Notes under the pieces: generated by a model | Databases searched by the model: none | Told to the model about the DNA's origin: nothing | What the model saw: the letters and a program-made list of their open reading frames with translations, nothing else | Position numbers and translations under genes: made by a program | Shown here: piece by piece, positions 5,581 through 40,213 of the stretch | How positions within the stretch are numbered: the stretch's first letter is position 1 | Layout: each line of letters begins with the position of its first letter | Source of the DNA: an uncultured Gammaproteobacteria bacterium | GTDB lineage: Bacteria; Patescibacteriota; Patescibacteriia; Patescibacteriales; UBA12465 | Direction of reading: 5' to 3' | DNA: 64,000 nt | NCBI GenBank assembly: GCA_964408775.1 | Contig: CAYPAP010000001.1 | Location: 21,404-85,403, forward strand

Positions 5581-5620
5581 ATAGAATCTTTGGGATCTTT
5601 AGAATCTTTGAGATCTTTAG
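5581..5620. repeat. Four tandem ~10-bp direct repeats (RRATCTTTR) upstream of fusA
   Basis: agaatctttg ggatcttta gaatctttga gatctttag; each unit contains a GATC or AATC core; iteron-like. Confidence 0.6.
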
Positions 5621-5648
5621 GATATTTTAATTAATTTATTATTTTTAT

Positions 5649-5890
5649 TTCTAAAAGTTTAAATTTTGTATTCCTAAAAGTTGATATTTTGTGGAAATTT
5701 TTAGGAAAAGGCGAGAAATGAAGCGAGTCTAAAAATTTCCAACCTAATTCTTAAAAGTTTAAATTTTGAGCGAAGTTTTAGGAAAAAGTGAAAAACAATT
5801 TCTAATTAGAAAAATTTAAATTTTAGATGAAGCTTTAGGAAGGGGCGAGAAATGAAGCGAGTCGTATTTTAATACGGCGAGCAAATTTCG
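5649..5890. repeat. Degenerate tandem repeat array (~55-100 bp units) in the rpsG-fusA spacer
   Basis: 'ttctaaaagtttaaattttg' occurs 3 times and 'ttaggaa(a/g)ggcgagaaatgaagcgagtc' twice; GC-rich words in an AT-rich background; rpsG and fusA are normally adjacent. Confidence 0.7.
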
Positions 5891-5931
5891 ATGTCCCTGA
5901 CGACAAGCTTCGCTAAAATTTAGATTTTTCC

Positions 5932-10115: not shown

Positions 10116-11180
10116 TTAATTTTTAATACAGCGCACAGCATAACCGCTCGCACGAGCATTAGTTCCGGCATAAGCTTCAACACCGCCAAAGAAAAAAAGA
10201 CGCGCATAACCACTTTCTATATTACTGGACCAATAATAGCCATAAAGTCCAGCATTATAAAGAGATCCACCAAAGCCACGATTTCCATTTAAGGTTAATT
10301 TTAAAGACGAGGCAAAAGCTCCAGCTGAATCACTTGAACTCCAAGTTGCCATTTCGGCAGTCCACTCTGCTTCGGTTGGTATTCTAAAGCTGTCTGGACA
10401 GGGATTATTAATTCCATCCAATCCTTGCCATAAATTATTGTTAGAAGGGTTTCGCCAATCGTAAGGATCAGCTGCGGAAATAATAAAATTAGCGTGACCC
10501 GGGGTATCGGAGGTGGCCAATGTCGCTGTCGTGGCCGAGGTTCTGATTTGATGACCATCGTCTAATCTCCCCCACTGGAAAAGGTCGCCATAAGCGTTAG
10601 TGTCAGTAGATGAAATAGCTACCTGGGAAGCTCCAAGGTTGCGATCCAACCAGCATTCGCCAGTAACAGGGTTTAATGCCGTCCCATAAGTTACAGGAGA
10701 TCCGTTATATGTAAAACTCACATTATAACCACCACATTGAGGAGTGCTTATCCCGTTAGGGCTGGCTATTTTTAATCCAGCTGATAAATCAGAAATATTA
10801 CCTCCAACACAAAAACCTATAGTATAAGTTGAGCCATCAGCAGAGGTGTAAGTATAAGCATTATCGCTCTCTTCACAATCTCCGTCTGCTGGAGTAGGGG
10901 CTAAGGGAACTCTGGCCATATAGGTTGATCCTCCGGTAGCTATAGCTGTGTCTATTTCTCCAGTTAAAGGATATACTCCGGTGTCATTATAATATAGCTC
11001 TAGTGCTGTTTGCATCTGCCTGACATCAGCGATTCTTTTGGCGTCTCGAGCATTCTTCCTGGCATTTTGTAGGGACACTACGGCCAGAGTTGATAAAATA
11101 CCTATTATGGCTATCACTACTAACAGTTCAATTAGAGTAAAAGCCGGCTTGGTGGATTTATTATTCTTTATTTTAAACAT
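10116..11180 (-). CDS. Type IV pilin-like N-terminus fused to a Fibrobacter-succinogenes-major-paralogous-like C-terminal domain
   Basis: 354 aa; leader MFKIKNNKSTKPA + FTLIELLVVIAIIGILSTLAV; C-terminus 'FQWGRLDDGH...YGYYWSSN...SGYAVRCIKN' resembles the TIGR02145 Fib_succ_major ending '...GFSVRCVKD'. Confidence 0.6.
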   Translation of the reverse strand: MFKIKNNKSTKPAFTLIELLVVIAIIGILSTLAVVSLQNARKNARDAKRIADVRQMQTALELYYNDTGVYPLTGEIDTAIATGGSTYMARVPLAPTPADGDCEESDNAYTYTSADGSTYTIGFCVGGNISDLSAGLKIASPNGISTPQCGGYNVSFTYNGSPVTYGTALNPVTGECWLDRNLGASQVAISSTDTNAYGDLFQWGRLDDGHQIRTSATTATLATSDTPGHANFIISAADPYDWRNPSNNNLWQGLDGINNPCPDSFRIPTEAEWTAEMATWSSSDSAGAFASSLKLTLNGNRGFGGSLYNAGLYGYYWSSNIESGYARLFFFGGVEAYAGTNARASGYAVRCIKN

Positions 11181-11285
11181 ATTTTTTATTTTATTTATAT
11201 TTTTTAGAATGTTTAGGAGGTTTGAGAGAATTAGGATAATTTTTTTTCTCTGCCAGCGTTTAAAAATTTCAGAATAGATGAGAGC

Positions 11286-11450
11286 GTAAAAACCGTGTAA
11301 AATTTTATTGTTTGAGCGAAGCCGCGTGAGCGCGAAGCGCTTTTACGTGGCGAGCGAGTTTAAAATTTTACTAGGTTTTATAGCGAGCATCCTGAAATTT
11401 TTATCTGCTGGCGATTTTTGCGCCACTTTTTCTAAAAAAGTGGCATTGAA
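11286..11450. other. GC-rich structured intergenic island (prfB 3' region / pilin-gene 5' region)
   Basis: Local GC far above background; inverted repeats gtaaaatttta/taaaattttac, agcgc-gaa-gcgct, tggcg-atttttg-cgcca and gccacttttt/aaaaagtggc; candidate terminator or ncRNA. Confidence 0.4.
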
Positions 11451-11501: not shown

Positions 11502-12608
11502 TTATTTATTTTTATTTTTTAGAACAAAACTCAAATACGCTTCAATAAATTCATCCAAGTATCCATCCATCACCTCATCTATTTTATTAGTCGAAAAATT
11601 GGTTCGATGATCCTTGACCATTTGATAGGGCTGAAAAACATAGGAGCGAATTTGTTTTCCCCAAGTTCCCTGTCCAGCATCGCCTTTTATTTTCTTGATA
11701 TTACTATCTATTTCCTCCTGTTGATTTTGGTATAATTTGGCTCGTAATATATCCATCGCCTTATCCTTATTTTGATGTTGCGATCTCTCGCTCTGACAAG
11801 CAACAGAAATTCCCGTAGGAACATGGACAATTCTAACGGCCGAATCCGTGGTATTTACACCTTGCCCACCGGGACCTGAAGATTTATAAGTATCAATTTT
11901 TAATTCGTTATCATTAATTTCTATTAAATTTTCATCTTTTATCTCGGGAATAACCTCCACTCCAGCAAAAGAGGTGTGGCGCATTGACTCAGCATCAAAG
12001 GGAGATATTCGCACCAAACGATGCACTCCATTTTCACTTTTTAAATAACCATAAGCATAGAGACCACTAATTTTTAAAACTGAGCTTTTTATACCAGCTT
12101 CATTCGCCGTACTTCTGTCTAATATTTCCACTTTAAAATTTTTCTTTTCAGCAAAACGCAGATACATTCGCTCCAATATTTCCGCCCAATCACAAGCATC
12201 TACTCCACCACTACCAGCATGAATTGATAAAATGGCCCCACTATCATCGTCCTTGCCAGAAAACATTAATAAAAATTCCAAATCTTTAAATTTGACCTCT
12301 AACTCTTCTAATTTATTAGAAACATCGCTATAAACAGAGTCATCATTATACTGTCCAGCTAAAGCCGCTAACTCTTCGGCAGATCTAACCTCGTCTTCGA
12401 TCTCCTCAAAACGACTTATTTCTGATTTTAAATTCTCTGCTTTCTGACTTATTTTTACAGCCCCCTCTCGATCATCCCAAAAATTATTTTGAGAAATCAA
12501 AAAATTTAACTCATTCCACTGGGCTTTTTTCTTTTCAATATTCAGGGTTTCTTTAACTTTAATAATATCCTCCCTTAAATCATTCAATTTTTTTACTAAA
12601 TTATCCAT
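11502..12608 (-). CDS. prfB: Peptide chain release factor 2
   Basis: 368 aa; GGQ motif (SGPGGQGVNTTDSAVRIVHVPTGI) and SPF tripeptide (RISPFDA) identify RF2; single intact ORF, no +1 frameshift site needed. Confidence 0.9.
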   Translation of the reverse strand: MDNLVKKLNDLREDIIKVKETLNIEKKKAQWNELNFLISQNNFWDDREGAVKISQKAENLKSEISRFEEIEDEVRSAEELAALAGQYNDDSVYSDVSNKLEELEVKFKDLEFLLMFSGKDDDSGAILSIHAGSGGVDACDWAEILERMYLRFAEKKNFKVEILDRSTANEAGIKSSVLKISGLYAYGYLKSENGVHRLVRISPFDAESMRHTSFAGVEVIPEIKDENLIEINDNELKIDTYKSSGPGGQGVNTTDSAVRIVHVPTGISVACQSERSQHQNKDKAMDILRAKLYQNQQEEIDSNIKKIKGDAGQGTWGKQIRSYVFQPYQMVKDHRTNFSTNKIDEVMDGYLDEFIEAYLSFVLKNKNK

Positions 12609-22343: not shown

Positions 22344-23354
22344 TTAAAAATTTAAATTTTGTCGGTTAGCCTTTAAGTCTAAGATGGTCTTCTTTAGACC
22401 GTTTTCCAACGTAACAACCGGCATCCAACCCAATTCATTTCTAATTTTATAAGTATCAGGGATGTTTAATTGAGTCATAAAAACCTTACTATCATCAAAA
22501 ACTATCTTTGATTTAGAGTCTGTCAACTTAATAACCTTTTGTGCTACATCATATAATTTAACGTCTTCTTCGGACCCGACATTAAAGGGCCCCTTTACAT
22601 CAGAGGAGATCACTTTAATAGCAGCGTCGATAATATCATCAACATAACATAGAGAAGATGAGAACTCTTTATCACCATAGATAATAAGGTCATCACCATT
22701 TAAAGCATCACTAATAAAATCTGACAACATTTGCTCATCGCCCAATGTCATTCTAGGGCCATAAACTCGAAACGTCCTAATAATTTTGGCATCTAAATTA
22801 AATATCTGATTGTAAGTATTAATAAAAACCTCAGCAAAACGTTTACCCTCATCATAGCAGGATCTTTCACTGGAAATATCAATTTGGCCCAAATTGTCCT
22901 CACGAACTTTAATAATCTTGTCAGAAGTGGGTCTAGCACCATAAACAACCGAAGAAGAAAAGTGTAATAATTTAGAGCTATATTTTAAGGTAATATCTAA
23001 AACATTTTTTACAACATAAGAATTAGCTAGAAGAATACTCTCCCTATTTTTCAAAAAATTTTTAGATGACATTGGACAAGCTAAATTATAAACCTCCTGA
23101 ATTCCTTGAAAAGGAATTTTAAACTTGTCCAACTCGTCTAATGACTCTAAATCAAGCGGTTGACTCATATCATGATTTATTAAAACAAAATTAGGGTCAG
23201 ACAATAAATGATCGATGTTTTTAGGAGTGCTACTAGAAAAATTATCAACACAAATAACTTTACTTTCTTTTATAAGCTCATCGCATAGATTAGAGCCAAT
23301 AAACCCAGCCCCTCCAATAACTAAAATGTTTTTTTTATCAAAAATTACAGACAT
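22344..23354 (-). CDS. NAD-dependent epimerase/dehydratase, UDP-glucuronate decarboxylase (UXS)-like
   Basis: 336 aa; GGAGFIGS Rossmann motif; catalytic 'YDEGKR' (YxxxK) typical of UXS/ArnA-type decarboxylases. Confidence 0.6.
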   Translation of the reverse strand: MSVIFDKKNILVIGGAGFIGSNLCDELIKESKVICVDNFSSSTPKNIDHLLSDPNFVLINHDMSQPLDLESLDELDKFKIPFQGIQEVYNLACPMSSKNFLKNRESILLANSYVVKNVLDITLKYSSKLLHFSSSVVYGARPTSDKIIKVREDNLGQIDISSERSCYDEGKRFAEVFINTYNQIFNLDAKIIRTFRVYGPRMTLGDEQMLSDFISDALNGDDLIIYGDKEFSSSLCYVDDIIDAAIKVISSDVKGPFNVGSEEDVKLYDVAQKVIKLTDSKSKIVFDDSKVFMTQLNIPDTYKIRNELGWMPVVTLENGLKKTILDLKANRQNLNF

Positions 23355-23380
23355 ATTATTAACAAGATCTTTAAGATGTT

Positions 23381-23527
23381 TACCCGCTCGGATAGCTTCG
23401 CTATCGAACGGGTCCGCTCAATTGCTCGAAGAGCAATCTGAGCGGAGGATCTTTACCCGCTCGGATAGCTTCGCTATCGAACGGGTCCGCTCAATTGCTC
23501 GAAGAGCAATCTGAGCGGAGGATCTTT
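23381..23527 (+). repeat. Two perfect tandem copies of a 73-bp GC-rich element with two predicted hairpins (candidate structured RNA)
   Basis: Unit 'tacccgctcggatagcttcgctatcgaacgggtccgctcaattgctcgaagagcaatctgagcggaggatctt' repeated head-to-tail with period 73; hairpin 1 acccg..(gatagc-ttc-gctatc)..cgggt; hairpin 2 ccgctcaattgc-tcgaaga-gcaatctgagcgg; flanked both sides by gatcttta. Confidence 0.85.
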
Positions 23528-23548
23528 AGGATATTATTAATTAATTAA
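23521..23548. promoter_or_regulatory. Conserved 'gatctttaggatatt(t/a)ttaattaat' motif, second copy of the motif upstream of fusA (5611-5640)
   Basis: 24 of 25 nt identical between 5613-5637 and 23521-23546; both lie 5' of minus-strand genes (fusA, UXS-like). Confidence 0.5.
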
Positions 23549-23625
23549 ATTATTATTTCTAGCTATATAATAGCATAAAAGGGTGGTTTTTCCAAAATAC
23601 TCACTTAAAATATACCTGAGCTGGA

Positions 23626-25689
23626 TTAATTTCCTATTTCAACAAATTCTACTACTACTCCCCCTTTGTATTCATCTTCTAGCCCATAAAATGAAGCCAT
23701 CAATTCGCCCTTACTATTGAAAGCTCTAACATGGGGGGTCCCCCCTGGTCCAGCACCAGCTATTATTTCATCTAATCCGTCCTTGTCTAAGTCACCCAAA
23801 GCCAAATTAACCCCTCCTTTAAATTTTTCTGCATAGGCTAAGAAGCTTTTAATTTTTTCACCGGAATTATTAAAAACCACAATTTCTGGTTTACGACCTG
23901 GTCCTGGAGAAATAACTATATCAGTTTTTCCTCTGCTATCCTTACCATAGACATTCCCCAGTCGAATTCTAGCTCCACCGAAAAAATCTTCTTCATAAGC
24001 AAAAAAATGACTTGTGAGCTTCCCTTGACCATTAAAAATTTTAACATGAGATCCCCCTTTAGAAAATGGGACCACCGCAATTTCGCTTTTTCCATCTCCA
24101 TCAATATCACCCACTGAAATACTAACTCCTCCGGTAAAATTTTCGTTATAAGCAAAAAATTGACCTTTTAATTTTCCTTGTTGATCAAAAATTCTAATAT
24201 GTGGTCCTCCTCCTGGTCCCGCAGCGGTAACAATCTCGTTTTTACCATCACCATCAACATCTCCCACTGCTACATTAACCCCGCCCCTAAATTTGGGATC
24301 ATAGGCGAAAAATTGTCCCTTAATATTACCAGAATTATCAAAAATTCTAACATGTGGACCACCTCCTAATCCCGCCCCGGTTATTATTTCTGAGGTGCCA
24401 TCTTTATCCAGGTCTGCTACAACCATATTTATGCTACCATTAAACTTTGGATCATAAGCAAAAAAACGACTTTCCTCTTCACCCTTACTGCTAGTGACTC
24501 TGACTGAGTTAAACATCTCCAACTCGTCTTTAAAATCTATAATATCAACCTGAGGAAAAAGCAAGAATCGCCCGGTAAGATTTTCCCATTTTTCCAAAGC
24601 CCAATTAACAGAGCTGGCTAAATTAACCCTTCCACTGCCAAGCTCATTAAGGTTTTCTGGATTTAAGGAATTAATATCATCTGAACTCCTAATTAATATA
24701 TCCAAAACCTGCTTATTGCTTAATTTCGGATTAGCCTCTTTAATAAGAGCCAATGATCCGCTAACAACTGCTGCGGACATGGAGGTACCAGACCAATAAC
24801 CATTGTAATAACTATTTTTTTTATCTTCGGTATCATAAAAAGATGACGAAAAAAAACTTATTCCTGGAGCGGAAATATCTACACAGTTTTTACCATAGGA
24901 AGAAAAAAACGCCTTCTGATCTAAAGTATCAGTTGCTCCAACAGAAATAATAATATTATTGTTATTAGATCCACCGAAACAAGCTGGATAAAGAGGTTCT
25001 TGATCTAAGTCAGAATTATTATTACCAGCAGCTGCAACAACAAGAATACCAGCTCGATAAGCCCTTTCAACAGCCTCTTCAAACCCCTGATTATATCCTA
25101 GCCCCGAAAAACTAAGGTTGATTATATCAGCTCCATTGTTAATAGCATAATCTATAGCCCTGACCACATCATTAATTTTGCCCTCACCACCTTCGTCTAG
25201 AGCTTTAAGCGGCATTATCTTCACATTAGAGGCAATACCACTTATTCCTATAGAATTATTAGTCTTGGCCCCAATAATTCCAGCTATCATAGTCCCGTGG
25301 TTCAAACCATCGTCGCTCCCTCCAAGGTCAAGTCTAGGGCGAGGATCTGGAACATTGTTAACAAAATCCCACCCATTTACATCGTCGATAAATCCGTTGC
25401 CATCATCGTCTTTGCCATTTTCAAAAATCTCAAATTTATTGCGCCAAATATTATCTCTTAAATCGGGATGGTCAATATAAATTCCAGAATCAATCACAGC
25501 CACAATAACATTTTTACCAATAAAATTTTTATTCCATATAGAGCTAAATCCAATACGGCTTAAATACCACTGATTATTAAAATAAGGATCGTTCGGTAAT
25601 TGCCCAAAATAAGCCCGAGAAGGAGGGATTAAAAAAGCAAAACTCACCAATAAAAAAAATGCTAAAATTATAATTACTCTTATTTTCAT
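23626..25689 (-). CDS. Secreted subtilisin-like serine protease (S8) with C-terminal FG-GAP/beta-propeller repeats
   Basis: Start set at 'MKIRVIIILAFFLLVSFAFL' signal peptide (the ORF-track N-extension overlaps rplY); catalytic triad context VAVIDSGI (Asp), HGTMIAG (His), GTSMSAAVVSG (Ser); five repeats of 'FFAYDPKF.GG...GD.DGDG..EI.TGAGPGGGPHVRIF'. Confidence 0.85.
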   Translation of the reverse strand: MKIRVIIILAFFLLVSFAFLIPPSRAYFGQLPNDPYFNNQWYLSRIGFSSIWNKNFIGKNVIVAVIDSGIYIDHPDLRDNIWRNKFEIFENGKDDDGNGFIDDVNGWDFVNNVPDPRPRLDLGGSDDGLNHGTMIAGIIGAKTNNSIGISGIASNVKIMPLKALDEGGEGKINDVVRAIDYAINNGADIINLSFSGLGYNQGFEEAVERAYRAGILVVAAAGNNNSDLDQEPLYPACFGGSNNNNIIISVGATDTLDQKAFFSSYGKNCVDISAPGISFFSSSFYDTEDKKNSYYNGYWSGTSMSAAVVSGSLALIKEANPKLSNKQVLDILIRSSDDINSLNPENLNELGSGRVNLASSVNWALEKWENLTGRFLLFPQVDIIDFKDELEMFNSVRVTSSKGEEESRFFAYDPKFNGSINMVVADLDKDGTSEIITGAGLGGGPHVRIFDNSGNIKGQFFAYDPKFRGGVNVAVGDVDGDGKNEIVTAAGPGGGPHIRIFDQQGKLKGQFFAYNENFTGGVSISVGDIDGDGKSEIAVVPFSKGGSHVKIFNGQGKLTSHFFAYEEDFFGGARIRLGNVYGKDSRGKTDIVISPGPGRKPEIVVFNNSGEKIKSFLAYAEKFKGGVNLALGDLDKDGLDEIIAGAGPGGTPHVRAFNSKGELMASFYGLEDEYKGGVVVEFVEIGN

Positions 25690-25735
25690 ATTAGTAAATT
25701 TTAGCATATTTTTTAGAAAAACAAAAATTGTAAAA

Positions 25736-26389
25736 CTAGCTTTTATTCTCTCCTGTTTTGTCACTTTTTGATTTGTCATCCTTGGCTTCGCTAGCTTCGT
25801 CACCGCTAGTTGCCTCTGGAACATCGGTTTTAGGAAGCTCTTCTTTTTCTTTTTTAGGCTCAACCACAGAAACAACAGCATCATCCGGATTATTTAAAAC
25901 TTTTAGATCGCTACTAACTTTAATATCTTTCACTAAAATAATATCACCGAAGGAAAGAAGAGATGAAATGTCCACATCAATATGGTCTACCAAGTCTTTT
26001 GGCAAGCACTCAACCTCTATAGAATCAATATTTTTCATTAATAAAGCACCTAGCTCCTTCACTGCCCGAGATTCGCCAACAAAGCTTAGTGGAATTTCAG
26101 CGGTTACCTTTTTACTCATATCAACCTGGTAAAAATCAACATGACTAAAAAAATCTTTGATCGGGTCTCTCTGAAAATCCTTAATTAGAACTGGAATCTT
26201 GCCAGATCCATCAATCTCTAATTCTATTAAATTAGATTCACCAGCCTCATCATAAACCTTGGTAAAATCATTGGTTTTAATCTTTATTAAAACATTTTCC
26301 GACCCTGGACCATAGATTATTCCAGGAAAAAAATCTTTGTTTAATTTTTCTTTTTTACTTCTAATTTCAGCTTTTAACTTAATGTTCAT
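25736..26389 (-). CDS. rplY: 50S ribosomal protein L25 / general stress protein Ctc
   Basis: 217 aa; L25 N-domain plus Ctc-type C-domain, ending in an acidic/Lys-rich low-complexity tail. Confidence 0.75.
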   Translation of the reverse strand: MNIKLKAEIRSKKEKLNKDFFPGIIYGPGSENVLIKIKTNDFTKVYDEAGESNLIELEIDGSGKIPVLIKDFQRDPIKDFFSHVDFYQVDMSKKVTAEIPLSFVGESRAVKELGALLMKNIDSIEVECLPKDLVDHIDVDISSLLSFGDIILVKDIKVSSDLKVLNNPDDAVVSVVEPKKEKEELPKTDVPEATSGDEASEAKDDKSKSDKTGENKS

Positions 26390-28979: not shown

Positions 28980-31076
28980 CTAACCCTCTAATTCTTCAGC
29001 CCTCTTTTGAATCAAGATTCTTAAATCATCTTTTCCGTTATTGTTTTTAATTATTTCCATTAATTCCTGTGCTGCTATTTTTGCCCAAACGACTTTTTTC
29101 TCATCGTGTCTATAATCTAGAGTTGTCTCCGGGTTGAAATTACTGACGCCGGCATCTCTTCGAACAGATCTGTCGTATTTTTGCCACATATAAAGCAACT
29201 CTCTAGCCATCTCTGTTTTTAGTTCTTCCTCAGTATTATACCTCTCTCGATTATCATTAAAATAATTAATCAGATCTCTATAATCTAGACCATGCTCAAT
29301 AGATATTTCGTCATCAATAAATCTACTAAGCTCTTCACTTATAAAGTGTTGCTTAATTTTCTCCTGATCCCTATACTCAACACTCTTATCGGCTTCCTTG
29401 TATAAATCATAATAATTAAATTCCCCTTCAGCAACGTCTTCTCTATTTAAATCTTTATCACTAAATATTTGTCGATGCCCAATATTTTGCTCATCCTCGT
29501 CTCCATCATCGTCGCCTCCCTCATTATCTTCATCATCATTTTCTTCTCCACCTTCATCTTCCTCTTCCCTTCTTCTCCACCATACAAAATTTGATGGTCT
29601 TTTTAATAATAAAAGAAGTAATAATAAAGGCAAAGGAAGAACTACTTGGGTTTTTTTACCTCCCTCAACTTCAATTTCAATATTTACTCCTCTCTTCGAT
29701 CCAACAATTTTATCCAGGGAATCTTTAACTGAAGATTCTAAATTATATTCACCAGAATTATATGCTGCAATTAAAGAAATGATCTTTTCCTCGTCGGAAC
29801 CACCACCAATTTCCAGACTATCAGCCAATTCTAACAACTCCTTCCATTCAGTATCAGAAAATTGAACTTCTTCGTAATTAATACTTTCTATAATTGAGGT
29901 GTCAATATTTCCCTCTTCCAATATTTCTCTTATTATATCCTCGGCCAATTCTCCTCTTTCTTTAGCTAGGCTAACATTTTCTTCCTCTACATTACCTGGC
30001 TTTACTGATTCAGGGTCATTTTTGCGTCCCTCTGGAGAGGAAAATCCCGTTATTTTGATTGCTTTCACTTCATTTTTGGAAAAAACATCTTTAAGCAAGT
30101 TATCTTTTTCTCCTCTAGTAGCCTCATAAACAGACTTTTTTTCACCAATTCTGACCAATTTATTAGCAAAAGCTGTTCTAATCTGATCCTTAAAATACTC
30201 CTCCATTTTGTCTTTGTCAGTTTCATTTGTTAGCTCTGATCCCTCAAATTTAGGAGCATAAGTATAGGGGACATTGATACTCTCACTTCCCTTTATTTCT
30301 CTATTAACCCCCAACTCTAAAGAGACAGGAGAAATTATCCCTCCCCAATTAAAAACAGTATCACTTTCTGAATTAACTTTATTAAAACGATGGTTTATAT
30401 CGAAAGAATAGGTTCTCTCTCCATATTCTGAGCTTGACTCCCTATCAATACCTCTAGTGTCCTCTAATTTATTTTTATCTTTTTCTAGATTAACATCAGA
30501 ACCCTCGTTACTAGTTAAAGAAGATGGTAATGATGTAAACATTAGAGCCAAAGCATAATATTTTATTGGCTTAATAGCAACAGAAAATTTATTTTTAAAA
30601 GATTCGTATTTTTCGTCAAAAAACTTTTTGAACGTAGAGGATTCATACTTATCAACCTCCTCTAAGACATTTTCTTCATTTAATGCAAAATTATCACTTT
30701 CAACTAGCTCTTTTTTAGATTCTTCACCATACTTATGAAAAATGGCTATTTTGCGACGTAACATTTCTATGTTCCTTAAGTGCATCTCCATAGTTTCCTG
30801 GTCAATATCTTCGCCCTTAGCAGACTCTTCTTTTAGAAAATTATACTCCTCTTCCAAATCTTTTTTGTGTAATTCAATCAAGTGCCCTGAAGGGTCTTTT
30901 TTGAATTCTTCATAATTATAGAAACTCTTTGTTCCTTCTTTCTCAGCTCCTCTTTGGGATTTAAGAAAATTTTCTCTCTTTAATAACTCAGAATCATACT
31001 TGTCTTTTTCGGTATCACTCTGTTTTTCTGGCTCTTTTTTTGAGCCTGGTTTAATAATTTTTTCAAAAAAATTCAT
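28980..31076 (-). CDS. Large hypothetical charged/acidic membrane protein
   Basis: 698 aa; Glu/Lys-rich coiled-coil-like N-terminal two-thirds; poly-Leu TM (VVLPLPLLLLLLLLKRP); D/E-rich block (EEEDEGGEENDDEDNEGGDDDGDEDE); possible OmpA-like segment 'ITGFSSPEGRKND'. Confidence 0.5.
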   Translation of the reverse strand: MNFFEKIIKPGSKKEPEKQSDTEKDKYDSELLKRENFLKSQRGAEKEGTKSFYNYEEFKKDPSGHLIELHKKDLEEEYNFLKEESAKGEDIDQETMEMHLRNIEMLRRKIAIFHKYGEESKKELVESDNFALNEENVLEEVDKYESSTFKKFFDEKYESFKNKFSVAIKPIKYYALALMFTSLPSSLTSNEGSDVNLEKDKNKLEDTRGIDRESSSEYGERTYSFDINHRFNKVNSESDTVFNWGGIISPVSLELGVNREIKGSESINVPYTYAPKFEGSELTNETDKDKMEEYFKDQIRTAFANKLVRIGEKKSVYEATRGEKDNLLKDVFSKNEVKAIKITGFSSPEGRKNDPESVKPGNVEEENVSLAKERGELAEDIIREILEEGNIDTSIIESINYEEVQFSDTEWKELLELADSLEIGGGSDEEKIISLIAAYNSGEYNLESSVKDSLDKIVGSKRGVNIEIEVEGGKKTQVVLPLPLLLLLLLLKRPSNFVWWRRREEEDEGGEENDDEDNEGGDDDGDEDEQNIGHRQIFSDKDLNREDVAEGEFNYYDLYKEADKSVEYRDQEKIKQHFISEELSRFIDDEISIEHGLDYRDLINYFNDNRERYNTEEELKTEMARELLYMWQKYDRSVRRDAGVSNFNPETTLDYRHDEKKVVWAKIAAQELMEIIKNNNGKDDLRILIQKRAEELEG

Positions 31077-31283
31077 ATTTTTTTGTTTTAATATTAAAAA
31101 ACTAAAATAATATTAATTAGATTACTTAGTTTATATAAAAATACTAACATAAAAATAATTTTTTGTAAAGTAAAAGTCACCTTACTCACATTTCGGACAA
31201 AAAATGTTCTCTAAAATAGAAAAGGGTGGTAAAATTTAGTGCAACATCCCAAAGAAAAACTTCAGAGTTAATTTAGAATGGGC

Positions 31284-31802
31284 TTACTCTAATTTTATAT
31301 CAAAAACATCTAGCAATCCAATTACTTCTGGAATTGAAAACTTCGTTTTTTTAAGAATATTTTGATTTGGATCTATACTATAATTTCTGGAACTTTTGAA
31401 AGATGCAAAACTCAAATTTGAATTTTGAAAACGGCTACTCTTCAAATCGGAATTTTCAAAATTTGCTCTTGTTAAATTAGTTTCTATAAAATCACATTCA
31501 AATATTTGGCAACTTTTAAAAATAGTATTTTTCAAGTCCAAATCAAAAAATACAGACATGGAAATAAAACAACTTTCAAAAGCAAAACTAATAATTAATT
31601 TATTACATTGAGAAAAATTTAACCCCATGATTTTACAACTTTTGAAAATAGTATCTTGAATTCGAGTGTTTTCTAAGTTTACATTAGATAAATTACAATT
31701 TTCAAAAACACAATTGGTAAAACCTGAATCCTTAAAAGACTTATCTGTAAAATTTACATTCTTAAAAGTTCTCGATTCAAATTCATTATTCTGATATTCC
31801 AT
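31284..31802 (-). CDS. Pentapeptide-repeat protein
   Basis: 172 aa; consecutive A(D/N)LxF-type pentapeptide repeats (NVNFTDKSFKDSGFTNCVFENCNLSNVNLENT...). Confidence 0.8.
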   Translation of the reverse strand: MEYQNNEFESRTFKNVNFTDKSFKDSGFTNCVFENCNLSNVNLENTRIQDTIFKSCKIMGLNFSQCNKLIISFAFESCFISMSVFFDLDLKNTIFKSCQIFECDFIETNLTRANFENSDLKSSRFQNSNLSFASFKSSRNYSIDPNQNILKKTKFSIPEVIGLLDVFDIKLE

Positions 31803-31859
31803 AAAAAATAGATATTTTTAATTCTTTATAATTTTTATCCACCTTAAATTAATCAATCA

Positions 31860-31990
31860 TAACATCGGAATTTAACGAAGTCATCGAGGGCGATTTGGGA
31901 AAAATGCGAGCTGAGCATTTTTTCGTTACCCCGAGCCGATAGGCGGAGCTCAGCGTGGTCGAGGTGAAGCCGAAGAAGTCGACAAGTGGC
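31860..31990. other. GC-rich structured intergenic island
   Basis: Inverted repeat gctgagc...gctcagc, repeated word cgaagtcatcg(a/g), gtcgacaag; shares TGACAAG/CGAAG words with other islands. Confidence 0.4.
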
Positions 31991-31993
31991 AAT

Positions 31994-32146
31994 TACTTTT
32001 GCATGAACTTATAGATTCCGTACAACACTAGCGCAGCAATAGAGACTATAACCGAAGTCATCGGATTCCACATCGCAGAAAATAATACTATTAAAGCAGC
32101 TATTATTGCAAAGCCCCCTTCTTTTTTTGAGTCTAGTTTTTTCATG
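31994..32146 (-). CDS. Small hydrophobic peptide (50 aa), possible membrane micro-protein
   Basis: MKKLDSKKEGGFAIIAALIVLFSAMWNPMTSVIVSIAALVLYGIYKFMQK; below the ORF-track size cut-off; start codon overlaps the recombinase ORF start on the opposite strand. Confidence 0.3.
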
Positions 32147-32176
32147 GTGATTTACATTAAATTAATAAAGAAAAAT

Positions 32177-32970
32177 ATGCAAACTCAATTAAATCTCTTA
32201 AAAAGAGAGTTAAAAATAAGGAATTATAGCCCCAAAACTATTGCGTCCTATCTTTATGGGTTAAAAGAATATCTAACATTTAAAAAAGAAAAATTAGGTA
32301 CTTTCGATGAAAATATTATTAAAAATTTTCTTTTAAGTTCTAAAAGCAAAATATCTCCACAAAGTCAAAACATATATCTCGGAGCTATTAAGTTTTATTA
32401 CTATAATATTATTAAAATTAACAAAAAAATAGAAATAAAATCAGTTAAAAAAATCAAAAAACTTCCCGTGGTTCTCTCGCGCCAAGAAATAGAAAAAATA
32501 TTAAATTCAATTTCTAATAAAAAACATAAATTATTAATAGCAGTCTCTTATGGAGCGGGGTTGAGAGTAAGCGAAATTATTTCTCTAAAAGTTAAAGATG
32601 TTGATTTAGAAGAACTAACAATACATATCAAAAACGCCAAAGGAAGAAAAGATCGAATTAGCATATTACCAGAAAAAATAGTAAAAGACCTGAGAGAAAT
32701 AATTGAATCTAAAAATTTAAATAACTATATTTTTGGGAGCAACAGAGGCGGAAAATTGAATTCTAGAACTGCTCAAAAAGTTTTTGAAAAGGCCTTGAAA
32801 AAGACGCCACCTTCCACAGCTTGCGTCATAGCTTCGCTACTCACCTATTAGAAAACGGGGTTGATGTTCGCTATGTTCAGGAATTATTAGGTCATCAAAA
32901 CATTAGAACAACTCAAATCTATGTCCAGGTTACTAATCCTAAATTAAAAAATATAAAAAGTCCCTTATGA
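32177..32970 (+). pseudogene. XerC/XerD-like tyrosine recombinase disrupted by a 1-nt frameshift in an A-run (~32797-32803)
   Basis: N-terminal SAM-like domain (MQTQLNLLKRELKIRNYSPKTIASYLYGL...); the annotated frame ends '...[17 protein letters not shown]', while the +1 frame continues '[40 protein letters not shown]' (catalytic HxxR...Y region) to TGA at 32968-32970. Confidence 0.75.
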
Positions 32971-37149: not shown

Positions 37150-38883
37150 TTAAACTAAGTTAATTTTGTCTTTTTTCTTTTTGCTATATTTGGTATGAAG
37201 AACTCTATGATCCTGACTATTATTTTTTAACCATTTAACCACTTCTACGGCCCCCTTATTATCATGGGCTGTTCTTATTTTAATCTTTTTATCCCCTTGA
37301 TACAACCCGGCCGTTCTTTTTGATACAATTTCCATAGAACTAGGTATGGGTTGACCACCGCCACCAATACAACCACCTGGGCAAGCCATCACTTCAATAT
37401 AATCATATTTAGACAAATTGTCCAGCACTCCCTTAATATTACCTATACCATTAACTACTGCTACATTTAATTTTTTACCGGATAAATCAATTTTAGCCTC
37501 TTTTACACCCTCTAAGCCACGCACCTCTTTAAATTCTAGTCTAGAACGACATATTTTAGCTTTTTTAGGGTCACAGATAACATGATGCGCCGTCCTAAGA
37601 GCTGACTCCATAACACCGCCACTAGCCCCATAAATAATTCCGGCCCCACTGCCGTCATTTATTAAATCATTAGATTTTTCTGGTCTTAATTTCTTAAAGT
37701 CAATATTGTTCTTCTTTATCATAAAAGCTAACTCTCTGACCGTTAAAACCTTATCCACCGGTTTTAACTTACCAATTTTAAGCTCAGGCCGAGAAATTTC
37801 AAACTTCTTAGCCGTGCAAGGCATAATAGAAACAATAACAATATCCTCGGGTTTAATTTTTTTCTTTTTAGCCCAGTAGGTTTTAATAATTCCACCTAGA
37901 TGAATTTGCGGCGAACGAGAGCTTGTGAGATGCGGAATTAAATCAGGCCTATAAAACTCTAAGTATTTAACCCAAGCTGGACAACAAGAAGTCATTAAAG
38001 GTAACCCAGCCTTTTTATCATTCAATCTTTCTAATAATTCCTCGGCCTCAACTAAAGTAGTTACATCGGCGCCAAAAACCACATCCATAACCTGGTCAAA
38101 TCCTAATTTCTTTAAGGCTGCTACCATTTTTCCACTATTATTTTGCCCGTAAGGCAGGCCGAACTCCTCTCCAATAGAAACCCTGGTTGAAGGAGCAATC
38201 ATGGCTATTAAAGTTTTCTTACCTTTTTTAGCTAAAATGTCTTCCACTTCCCCCCAATTATATTGCTCCTGAGCTGAGGCCACTGGACAATGGAGAGCAC
38301 ATTGCCCACAATAAATACAATCGATATTGGGGTCTTGAGTAGGCACTATTTCCTGCGCAGCTCCCTTCCCTTTTATTTCTAAGTAATTTATTTTTTGAAT
38401 ATCAGAGCAAGCATCCACACAATTACGACAATCTATACACTGAGACCCATCAATTTCCACGGCATTAGCAAATTTATATGTTTTACGTTTTACTTTTCTG
38501 TCTTGAAAATTAGTAACTTTCAAATCATACTTTTTTGCTAGGTTTAATAAATCACAATTATATTTTAAAGTGCAACCAAAACATTTCTCAGTATGTTCGG
38601 CAAAAATTAATTTCAAATTAGTGTTACGAGCTTTTTTAACTTTAGGCGAATTTGTAAATATTTCTATTCCATTCTCGGCTAAAACTGAACAAGAGGTCAT
38701 TAATTTATCACAATCCTTCACCTCAACCACACAAACACGACAATTAGCCTTAATTTTTAGGTCTGGGTGATAACATAAAGAAGGAATAAATATTTTATTA
38801 TTCCGAGCTATTTCCAAGATAGTCTGACCTAAATAGCCCTGACATTTTTTACCATCTATTTTTATTTCTATTTTTTTTGGCAT
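37150..38883 (-). CDS. hydA: [FeFe]-hydrogenase catalytic subunit HydA (M3, CpI-like)
   Basis: 577 aa; N-terminal 2Fe-2S ferredoxin-like domain; 4Fe-4S motifs CIDCRNCVDAC and CIYCGQCALHCP; H-cluster motifs L1 'TSCCPAWV', L2 'MPCTAKKFE', L3 'ACPGGCIGGGGQP'. Confidence 0.9.
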   Translation of the reverse strand: MPKKIEIKIDGKKCQGYLGQTILEIARNNKIFIPSLCYHPDLKIKANCRVCVVEVKDCDKLMTSCSVLAENGIEIFTNSPKVKKARNTNLKLIFAEHTEKCFGCTLKYNCDLLNLAKKYDLKVTNFQDRKVKRKTYKFANAVEIDGSQCIDCRNCVDACSDIQKINYLEIKGKGAAQEIVPTQDPNIDCIYCGQCALHCPVASAQEQYNWGEVEDILAKKGKKTLIAMIAPSTRVSIGEEFGLPYGQNNSGKMVAALKKLGFDQVMDVVFGADVTTLVEAEELLERLNDKKAGLPLMTSCCPAWVKYLEFYRPDLIPHLTSSRSPQIHLGGIIKTYWAKKKKIKPEDIVIVSIMPCTAKKFEISRPELKIGKLKPVDKVLTVRELAFMIKKNNIDFKKLRPEKSNDLINDGSGAGIIYGASGGVMESALRTAHHVICDPKKAKICRSRLEFKEVRGLEGVKEAKIDLSGKKLNVAVVNGIGNIKGVLDNLSKYDYIEVMACPGGCIGGGGQPIPSSMEIVSKRTAGLYQGDKKIKIRTAHDNKGAVEVVKWLKNNSQDHRVLHTKYSKKKKDKINLV

Positions 38884-39884
38884 AAATTTGGATAAACATT
38901 TTTAAAATAACTTAAAATAGCGATAGGAGCACAGGCCCCCAAGGCGCAAAAAGAAGATGTTTCTAAATTTTTACATAAATCAACAAAATCACTAACATCT
39001 TTTAAATATGAACGTTTATTTTTAAATAACTCTAATAAACGATAAGTGCCCTCGCGGCAAGGAGTGCATTGACCGCAAGAATTATCGGCGAAAAAACTCA
39101 ACCAATAATTAACCAGCTTTTCAGGTCGATGATTAGAAAGTTTATAAATAGTGATAGACCCGGCACCGGGAACTTTTCTTCTTAATTGTTTCTGATTAAA
39201 TACTTCCCCGCTAGCATCTCCGCCCACTTGAACAAAAAAATCGTATTTAGGATAGTTTTTAGTTTTGATTAAAACATCTTTAATACTTAAATCATCTGGC
39301 AAACTATAAACACCCTTGTTTTTATTTTCTATATTAATAGAATAAAATCTCTCACCAGAAAATTTATTTATACTAACTAAATAAACGTCATATAAGGTCT
39401 CAATATTATTAATCAAAGTCGGTTGGCCAAAAAGTCCCTTTTCGGTTGGAAATGGGGGGCGTAATCGAGGTTCGGCTCTCCCGCCTTCAATGATATTTAA
39501 AATAGTACTTTCCTCCCCACCAATATATCCAGCCCCTTTTGGTTTTTTGATTATTTCAAATTTCCCCTTTAAACCAGCCTTATTAAATTCTTTTATTATC
39601 TTGTTCTTATAAATATCATAATATTTACCATTGAGATAAAAATAAATTTTGGTAGCCTTAATGGTGTCGGAGGCGATCTTAACACCAATAGAAAATTCTT
39701 TTAATAAATTTTTAATAATATAACCATCCTTATAAATACCAGGTTCTCCCTCGGCTCCATTTATTATTAAATATTTAGTTTTGCTTTTAGCCTTGGCTAC
39801 GGATTGCCACTTAATATGAGTTGGGAAACCAGCCCCACCTCGGCCAAGCAAACAAGCTTTTTCTATTTTTTTTATTATCGACAT
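38868..39884 (-). CDS. NuoF-like (51-kDa/HydB-type) NAD(P)H-binding flavoprotein, minimal form
   Basis: 338 aa; 'GRGGAGFPTHIKW' FMN/NADH motif very near the N-terminus; C-terminal 4Fe-4S motif 'SCGQCTPCREG'; overlaps the hydA start by 16 nt (operonic). Confidence 0.75.
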   Translation of the reverse strand: MSIIKKIEKACLLGRGGAGFPTHIKWQSVAKAKSKTKYLIINGAEGEPGIYKDGYIIKNLLKEFSIGVKIASDTIKATKIYFYLNGKYYDIYKNKIIKEFNKAGLKGKFEIIKKPKGAGYIGGEESTILNIIEGGRAEPRLRPPFPTEKGLFGQPTLINNIETLYDVYLVSINKFSGERFYSINIENKNKGVYSLPDDLSIKDVLIKTKNYPKYDFFVQVGGDASGEVFNQKQLRRKVPGAGSITIYKLSNHRPEKLVNYWLSFFADNSCGQCTPCREGTYRLLELFKNKRSYLKDVSDFVDLCKNLETSSFCALGACAPIAILSYFKNVYPNLCQKK

Positions 39885-39915: not shown

Positions 39916-39988
39916 GTCATCCTCCGCTCAGATTATTCTTCGAGTAATTGAGCAAACCCACTCGATAGCAAGGCTATCCGAATGGGTA
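39916..39988 (-). repeat. Third, diverged (~84% identical) inverted copy of the 73-bp element, ~30 nt upstream of the NuoF-like start
   Basis: Minus-strand sequence 'tacccattcggatagccttgctatcgagtgggtttgctcaattactcgaagaataatctgagcggagg' aligns to the 23381 unit; both predicted stems kept via compensatory changes (G-C to A-U twice) and C-G to U-G wobbles. Confidence 0.8.
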
Positions 39989-40213
39989 AATTTATTAATT
40001 ATCCTAATTCTCCTAAATATCCCCCTTCCTGCCTTTGTGCTTATCCTTGCGACTATACTTCTTCTTATTCTTATGAGCCCCACCTTTAAGGCAAAAGGCT
40101 CCGGAGCCAGTTTCTAAATCAGCCTCTCGCCCTCCTTTTTTTAGGCCTTTTAATAAAACCCTTTTCTTATCTTCGTCTGATAAGTTAAAAGATAAATTTT
40201 CCTTCATAATAAG

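Follow-up and report, generated by a model that had tools for sequence, protein, structure and literature searches.

A tandem GC-rich double-hairpin repeat upstream of a UXS-like gene in an uncultured Patescibacteria genome is probably a low-copy palindromic insertion repeat rather than a dedicated gene for an RNA

Does the pair of GC-rich hairpin units that lies between an S8 peptidase gene and a UXS-like gene in an uncultured Patescibacteria bacterium (GenBank assembly GCA_964408775.1) represent a gene for a structured RNA, or is it something else? The pair is located in a stretch of 64,000 nucleotides of contig CAYPAP010000001.1 (hereafter the window, to which all positions refer unless a relative is named), and the original prediction, made from the letters alone, was that of a novel structured RNA on the plus strand, present in two copies through recent amplification of a mobile element or a miniature inverted-repeat transposable element (MITE). 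We report that the tandem most probably consists of two copies of a 64-nt GC-rich double-hairpin repeat, which is palindromic, insertional and non-autonomous, and that it is not a dedicated RNA gene; we give this reading a probability of roughly 0.7. In kind the element is ordinary and belongs with the repetitive extragenic palindromic (REP) elements, the IS200/IS605 mini-elements and the MITEs; it is low in copy number and falls short of the full definition of REP or IS200/IS605. Comparison with close relatives shows that the element has been inserted; it is also present at a second, unrelated intergenic locus, and the well-conserved empty site upstream of UXS shows no duplicated target.

The tandem occupies a 271-nt spacer extending from the stop codon of the S8 peptidase gene to the ATG of the UXS-like gene:

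22344-23354, minus strand: UXS-like NAD-dependent epimerase/dehydratase gene
23626-25884, minus strand: S8 peptidase gene

Tandem Repeats Finder reported an array with a period of 73 nt at 23375-23528 (2.1 copies, 98% matches, score 301). Its two complete units (23382-23454 and 23455-23527) stand head-to-tail and do not differ from each other, as had been predicted: both 32-nt halves repeat with 0 mismatches (23382-23413 = 23455-23486 and 23414-23445 = 23487-23518), each half occurs twice in the 64-kb window, and no match to them was obtained in any of 100 shuffled sequences. The predicted GC content of about 55% in an AT-rich genome also held (40/73 = 55% for the unit and 57.8% for the 64-nt core, vs 33.4% for the window). 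Since the whole spacer is 100% identical in three further, independently assembled metagenome contigs, i.e. in four assemblies, we rule out that the tandem is an assembly artefact.

Relatives were found by protein searches with the UXS-like protein, and the gene order S8, UXS and ThrRS is kept wherever the contig reaches. They are uncultured Patescibacteria (GCA_028696995.1, "Patescibacteria group bacterium"), with more distant matches in Falkowbacteria. In relatives with UXS proteins 85% (L016-L018) and 82% (L019/L020) identical to that of the window, this position between S8 and UXS is occupied by uninterrupted 9-nt repeats, TAAAGATCY, and the element is absent. Specifically, the spacer of L016-L018 ends with ...AATAATATC TTAAAGATC TTAAAGATC CTAAACATC TTAAAGATC TTGTTAATAGT-ATG and the array of L019/L020 is similar, while the minus strand of the window reads ...AATAATATC CTAAAGATC C(64 nt)TAAAGATC C(64 nt)TAAACATC TTAAAGATC TTGTTAATAAT-ATG (in the array comparison the stretch after the last TTAAAGATC is given as TTGTTAATAGTATG for L016 and as TTGTTAATAATATG for the window). 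Compared with the empty site, two neighbouring 9-mers of the window are thus each interrupted at a GATCC^TAAA junction by a 64-nt insert, and the two inserts are identical. The resulting features are as follows, where the element boundaries, taken from the L016 empty site, have a 1-nt ambiguity:

23355..23382, minus strand: gene-proximal host array and leader, TAAACATCT TAAAGATCT TGTTAATAAT and then ATG, with period 9 at 23364-23382; near-identical to the relatives with an empty site
23383..23446, minus strand: element copy E1, 64 nt, the copy closer to the UXS start codon, reading TCCGCTCAGATTGCTCTTCGAGCAATTGAGCGGACCCGTTCGATAGCGAAGCTATCCGAGCGGG; placed by comparison with the L016 empty site
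23447..23455, minus strand: single host 9-nt unit TAAAGATCC between E1 and E2, read from the sequence
23456..23519, minus strand: element copy E2, 64 nt, identical to E1
23520..23566, minus strand: distal host array (…ATATCC TAAAGATCC) and AT-rich leader downstream of the predicted promoter, from the comparison with relatives

When both inserts are removed four 9-mers are left, the same number as in L016, and nothing has therefore been duplicated at the target. Moreover, because the two inserts are separated by one host 9-mer, the 73-nt unit, although its period is real, is a composite of the 64-nt element and a 9-nt host repeat. The motif 'gatcttta', which had been noted on both sides of the tandem, is present there (23366-23373 and 23521-23528); its reading as a target-site duplication had to be abandoned, because it is part of the host array and is found in the pre-existing four-unit array of the empty-site relative L016.

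The two hairpins predicted for each unit fold as drawn (-36.9 kcal/mol on the plus strand, z = -5.0), and the unit folds better still on the minus strand (-41.1 kcal/mol, z = -6.8). Hairpin A has 14 bp with one bulged A (32 nt) and hairpin B 13 bp with one bulged C (30 nt), with CCGCTCAGATTGC and CCCGTTCGATAGC, respectively, as 5' arms. They are 1 nt apart, and 0-1 nt separates their feet from the element boundaries. The element has an imperfect palindrome at either end, with CCGCTCRGATWGC as a common motif; CCGCTCRGAT, which the two hairpins have in common, is located in their 5' arms on one and the same strand, which places the hairpins in direct orientation, and the two ends are also related by an inverted similarity (14 nt at 86%). 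Folded as DNA, the two halves reach -24.8 and -23.2 kcal/mol (z about -6.5 to -7) and are strong on either strand.

A sensitive blastn search of the window with the unit identified a third, diverged copy:

39923..39986, plus strand: element copy E3, 64 nt, 47% GC
39987..40022, plus strand: degenerate 9-nt repeats TAAATTTAT TAATTATCC TAATTCTCC TAAATATCC directly 3' of E3, with period 9 at 39996-40022

With a covariance model built from the element copies (R1), E1 and E2 each scored 96.1 bits and E3 88.6 bits. E3 is identical to E1 at 53/64 positions (83%), without indels, and all 11 differences are transitions. It lies between a conserved 64-aa open reading frame (ORF; 40013-40207, minus strand, downstream of GAPDH) and a NuoF-like gene (38868-39884, minus strand) that belongs to an [FeFe]-hydrogenase cluster and is unrelated to UXS. 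The idea that the copies mark paralogous genes was rejected, as the genes downstream of them are unrelated (epimerase/dehydratase vs NuoF-like). Relative to the neighbouring genes, all on the minus strand, E3 is oriented opposite to E1 and E2, and the orientation of the element relative to the target motif and the 9-mer array is the same at both loci. The flanks of the three copies are GATCC^/^TAAAG, GATCC^/^TAAAC and CATCC^/^TAAAT, with ATCC^/^TAAA in common (three insertions at two loci). On either strand E3 has 2-3 broken pairs, and with its lower GC content it looks like a copy that is decaying towards AT.

The E3 site is empty in the orthologous spacers of L023/L024 and L021/L022, which are too diverged for an exact comparison; L023 has GGATCTTTG-type 9-mers at the site corresponding to 39987-40022. 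At the UXS site, the closest relative, L015 (UXS 89% identical), carries the element, changed by two substitutions; the contig of L015 begins within it, which is what a repeat would be expected to cause during assembly. L015 and L023 are from the same sequencing run and, if they are from the same organism, this organism has the element at UXS and not at NuoF. Together, the diverged third copy and the empty orthologous sites at both loci in close relatives bear out that part of the original prediction which proposed a mobile, amplified element.

Another relative, L025 (UXS 87% identical), has other inserts after the same ...TCC^ junctions, namely an insert of about 80 nt and a single hairpin with approximately 70% similarity to hairpin B, and these different hairpin inserts at the same junctions point to an insertion hot spot. 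The inserts are found at 3115-3245 of L025 (sequencing run SRR29699985), where the 80-nt insert (CACGTAAAAACTC...CACGTGGTAGG) is structured and is accompanied by the diverged version of hairpin B. The NuoF upstream region from the same run, L026, has at 25-80 yet another strong hairpin, GCCGCGTTAACTATCTTTAGGCGGAGCATAAAGATAGTTTTTACGCGG (-28 kcal/mol, z = -5), such that several unrelated small palindromic inserts populate the UXS and NuoF leaders of the SRR29699985 relative. The spacer between UXS and ThrRS in L025 (4270-4581) is 312 nt long, vs 13 nt in the window, and contains a hairpin without mismatches (CTAGAACGGGATT...AATCCCGTTCTAG-like) with a T run behind it, which may be a terminator that was inserted or a further small element.

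How, then, could the element have spread? We propose that this would occur by site- and orientation-specific insertion of the hairpin-ended element with a transposase supplied in trans. Given the hairpin ends, the short specific target and the lack of a target duplication, a single-strand enzyme would be the most likely one, and by analogy an HUH/Y1 enzyme of the 'peel-and-paste' type can be put forward as a tentative, and on balance doubtful, candidate. The two identical copies might reflect two insertions at adjacent equivalent targets or a duplication mediated by the 9-mers on either side; the former agrees better with the unchanged number of 9-mers, since duplication by slippage would need a later loss of a 9-mer. 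Given the conserved promoter-like site upstream (see below), both copies would be included in the UXS leader transcribed from the minus strand, thereby adding four stable hairpins about 27 nt ahead of the ATG, and these could alter the stability or translation of the mRNA, as REP elements do.

Further copies were searched for in several ways. Scanning with R1 of the window (filters off) and of all 31 retrieved loci, which covered about 18 kb of extra flank of the source genome and the loci of relatives, gave no new full copies; the marginal matches were 11292-11351 in the window (17 bits, a different palindrome) and 3204-3239 in L025 (17.5 bits, the diverged hairpin-B-like insert). The first of these is part of an imperfect palindrome of about 170 nt at 11240-11415, located where a pilin-like gene (10116-11180) and the gene that follows (11502-12608) are separated by a spacer, with the arms CTGCCAGCGTTTAAAAATTTCAGAAT... 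and ...ATCCTGAAATTTTTATCTGCTGGCG around the GC-rich centre GAGCGAAGCCGCGTGAGCGCGAAGCGC, and it looks like a different repeat or structured element. No solo hairpins of the form CCGCTC-N10-30-GAGCGG were detected beyond the known copies, and no blastn match was obtained in phage and plasmid collections. In a pattern scan of viral contigs, CCGCTCAGATTNNTCTTCGAG gave 0 matches and TCGATAGCNNNGCTATCCGANNGGG one, which is a short unrelated palindrome in a GC-rich phage contig. Scanning 185,579 species genomes gave 3 chance matches (Acidimicrobiales, Rikenellaceae and an actinobacterium), none of which extends into a hairpin. The scan of Joint Genome Institute (JGI) metagenomes returned 7 loci that represent two unrelated sequences, also by chance, and is weak evidence of absence because it missed a JGI contig known to carry the element. 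This contig, L003 (Ga0334884_1004840), has two exact pattern matches, and the collection scanned is thus seemingly not complete for JGI samples that can be reached by protein look-up.

Several of our results weigh against an insertional repeat that spreads in this way. The copy number is low, with three full copies at two loci in approximately 82 kb of the source genome, while about 130 kb of relatives yielded only the partial copy of L015 and the weak half-element of L025. The Pfam tables for the same 82 kb list no transposase of any family (Y1 HUH/TnpA, TnpB, RAYT and DDE included). Unoccupied ATCCTAAA sites exist, 5 in the window and others in relatives. With hairpins that reach 0-1 nt from its ends the element has no room for linker and guide tetranucleotides of the IS608 type, and the opposite orientations at two loci (n = 2) within a stretch of uniform GC skew are not what strict insertion into the lagging-strand template predicts. 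Finally, the presence and absence of the element at the UXS site could likewise result from one old insertion, passed on vertically to three close relatives, without ongoing mobility.

The sole recombinase in the 82 kb is a tyrosine recombinase of 235 aa at 32144-32851. It is encoded in an island at 28980-32851 (504-4375 in L001), between a cysteine-desulfurase-like gene and NifU, which comprises genes for a 698-aa protein without Pfam match and a pentapeptide-repeat protein, with the recombinase gene on the opposite strand. The island is absent from L016 and L019, and L023 has a recombinase and toxin-antitoxin genes there; this position is probably a hot spot for integrative elements.

A more novel reading is rather improbable: an undescribed class of minimal, 64-nt, site-specific hairpin transposons in Patescibacteria, which would leave no target duplication, have cleavage sites that abut the hairpin feet (unlike IS608 and REP/RAYT) and home to the conserved 9-nt arrays in housekeeping-gene leaders (UXS, EF-G and NuoF). 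If true, leader structure would be rewritten in genomes with very little regulatory capacity, and the inserts of L025 would be sister elements on the same target.

We consider it unlikely that the element is not mobile at all and arose once in the UXS leader, where slippage between 9-mers would have duplicated it, while recombination or gene conversion involving similar 9-mer arrays would have placed one copy in the NuoF spacer. Every copy is flanked by 9-mer arrays that could mediate slippage or ectopic recombination, the copy number is very low, and the copies at the UXS site in three relatives fit a single vertical origin. Against this, duplication of the element together with a 9-mer would need a further loss to restore the 9-mer count of the empty site, the junctions are nucleotide-precise at both loci with the same ATCC^/^TAAA flanks, and L025 has different hairpin inserts at these junctions. 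Nor would such a history explain how a double palindrome of 58% GC arose in a genome with 33%.

No more probable is a classical MITE with terminal inverted repeats, moved by cut-and-paste through a DDE transposase. The element is small, AT-flanked, intergenic and dispersed, and its termini TCCGCTCAGAT and CCCGCTCGGAT match in inverted orientation at 9/11 positions; however, these 'inverted repeats' are the outer arms of two separate hairpins, the clean empty site lacks a target duplication (2-10 bp in a classical MITE) beyond one ambiguous T, and no DDE transposase was seen in the 82 kb.

Equally doubtful is a selected, cis-acting RNA module in leaders or spacers that would control stability, processing or translation of the mRNAs of UXS and the hydrogenase operon, with the insertion history being incidental. 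Both loci are 27-38 nt upstream of a start codon (the tandem copies end 28 nt before the UXS ATG) and inside predicted transcripts. For UXS the prediction derives from a promoter-like site located upstream of the inserts, which makes the copies a predicted part of the UXS leader on the minus strand:

23567..23595, minus strand: promoter-like site for UXS, TTGGAA-17-TG-n-TATTAT, by consensus scan only

The site (TTGGAA-17-TATTAT/TATAAT) is kept in 4/4 relatives that cover the stretch, including L016, L019 and L025. Terminator-like sites, in the sense of an intrinsic terminator (a GC-rich hairpin followed by a U tract), were found on neither strand at either locus. On the sense strand of the genes, i.e. 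the minus strand, the hairpins are no less stable than on the plus strand, and all copies fold slightly better in the local mRNA sense (the values for the E1/E2 unit are given above; -25.6 vs -24.1 kcal/mol for E3). The tandem is identical in four assemblies, and 4/5 single-sided stem substitutions among E1, E3 and L015 keep a G-U pair on the local sense strand. These four are C-to-T changes when read on the coding strand, i.e. the minus strand (the two changes in L015 are transitions as well), and the plus-strand GC skew is strong and uniformly negative across the window; the same substitution pattern is thus also predicted from a mutation bias of the leading strand, which is the coding one, and such a bias can make it look as if G-U pairs were conserved in the mRNA sense. 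Furthermore, the element is in opposite sense in the two transcripts, the genes downstream are unrelated, the orthologous leaders of close relatives lack it, and E3 is losing GC and base pairs.

An independent plus-strand structured small RNA gene, recently duplicated in tandem, is very unlikely: the unit folds far better than its shuffles, is GC-rich for an AT-rich genome and shows two G-C to A-U double changes between E1 and E3, but the minus strand is the more stable one, no plus-strand promoter-like site was found at the tandem locus and no terminator-like site either, the conserved promoter-like site upstream is on the minus strand, the element is absent from orthologous spacers at 82-85% identity, E3 is inverted relative to its genes with pairs lost on either strand, Rfam has no match, and the covariation is at chance level.

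As regards the last two points, the search with Infernal and Rfam that had been suggested matched no family. In the window as a whole there was no match at gathering thresholds, and in the local region at E <= 10 (Rfam 15) the best overlapping scores were 16-21 bits, vs gathering thresholds of 60-79, for microRNA and viral pseudoknot models (E >= 1.9); ARAGORN predicted no tRNA or tmRNA gene in the window. The observed covariation score was reached by 164/500 shuffles. Three pairs are changed on both sides, which gives P = 0.016 with changes placed anywhere, and for the two G-C pairs changed on both sides P = 0.19 with changes restricted to G/C sites; covariation from three sequences is not distinguishable from chance. 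With no homologue found beyond two or three very close relatives, the proposal of a novel structured RNA family was not upheld. The empty sites, the inverted E3 and the promoter and terminator findings argue against both a plus-strand small RNA and a conserved cis-regulator, and we advise against treating the locus any further as a candidate for a novel RNA gene. The GGAGG motif is a junction product, generated where the element end GCGGA meets the host repeat GGATC, and was rejected as a ribosome-binding site: no plus-strand ORF follows it, and about 35 nt separate it from the ATG of NuoF in the case of E3.

How does the insertional repeat compare with known elements? Described palindrome-associated transposable elements (PATEs) are much longer than 64 nt. 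As in PATEs, the element has no coding capacity, carries same-sense hairpins of related sequence at both ends, and appears to be inserted beside a short motif without target-site duplication and in fixed orientation to this motif (three insertions, two loci). In IS200/IS605 and their gene-less derivatives, the sub-terminal imperfect palindromes and insertion 3' of a tetra- or pentanucleotide without target duplication are established (PMC3597680, PMC10055086), and IS608 ends need linker and guide tetranucleotides, where a shortened left-end linker blocks assembly of the active complex (PMC3597680). The element differs in that it lacks the linker, guide and cleavage tetranucleotide geometry of IS608, in that its orientation is opposite at two loci in one replichore (a weak difference, with two loci), and in that neither tnpA nor tnpB was found in the 82 kb.

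REP elements are handled by RAYT (TnpA-REP) enzymes and form BIME/REPIN clusters in proteobacteria (PMC3479197). Like these, the element is made up of extragenic imperfect palindromes that are 30-35 nt long and contain a base that is bulged or mismatched (its hairpins of 32 and 30 nt are close to the roughly 35-40 nt of REPs), is GC-rich relative to its surroundings, lies between co-directional genes in either orientation, is clustered in twos or more, and would be expected to add stable hairpins to mRNAs. It differs from REPs in several respects. Neither the 64-nt element nor its immediate flanks contain GTAG or CTAC, the former being conserved at the 5' end of REPs; its hairpins are direct and 1 nt apart, whereas REPs are paired in inverted orientation with a linker; it has three full copies in the 82 kb as compared with hundreds of REPs per genome; and no RAYT gene was seen there, in a host that belongs to the Patescibacteria. 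In the literature searched we found no description of REP-like elements in Patescibacteria.

Correia elements and RUP are 100-150 bp or more in size and have short target duplications (TA for Correia). Both are named among the small MITE-like repeats, the former in Neisseria and the latter in Streptococcus (PMC3479197). The element shares with them that it is short, non-coding, dispersed and intergenic with inverted-repeat termini, near genes where transcripts can change; it differs in being 64 nt, without duplication, and essentially two hairpins alone. An integron attC site was also considered and set aside as unlikely, since this would be a single hairpin and no R''/R' core motifs were seen when reading the sequence by eye. 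Given the lack of linker and guide, the lack of GTAG, the direct hairpins, the low copy number, the opposite orientations and the lack of a transposase, we file the element as a small palindromic insertion repeat that acts in the manner of the IS200/IS605 and REP elements and belongs to neither family.

The host arrays are of interest in their own right. Arrays of the 9-nt repeat TAAAGATCY, with the core palindrome AAGATCTT, immediately precede the EF-G, UXS and (in degenerate or inverted form) NuoF start codons, at 5582-5627, at 23355-23382 with 23520-23535, and at 39987-40022 in the window, and they are conserved in relatives (~9950-9990 in L016, L019, 9910-9960 in L023 and ~9950-9990 in L030). 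The array of EF-G is unoccupied:

5582..5627, minus strand: 9-nt array just upstream of the EF-G start codon, with an insert-free ATCCTAAA site; conserved in L030

At 5582-5650, upstream of EF-G, there is a module resembling that at 23520-23566: an AT-rich segment, GAAATAAtAAT..TTAATTAA..ATATCC, precedes the arrays of both UXS and EF-G, and the -35/-10-like site is conserved at UXS, the sole locus checked for it. The spacer between S7 and EF-G (rpsG-fusA; 5628-5931 in the window) is unusually long, 360 nt, with repeated segments of about 60-70 nt (…GACTCGCTTCATTTCTCGCCyyTTCCTAAA…TTTAAA…) that are kept, rearranged, in L030 (9684-9950). The 9-nt arrays may represent a leader or operator module, and they are apparently also the sites where hairpin elements insert.

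Proteobacteria and firmicutes are well known to carry small palindromic insertion repeats, and we found no description of such repeats in the reduced genomes of Patescibacteria (candidate phyla radiation, CPR) in the literature searched. The conserved leader arrays, with their apparent role as an insertion hot spot, are a more unusual by-product of this analysis than the element and, being conserved upstream of several genes, may be the more interesting follow-up. If the element proves to be a family it would provide a marker of recent genome change in Patescibacteria, a possible handle on an unrecognised single-strand transposase, and a natural experiment on the effect of strong leader hairpins on expression.

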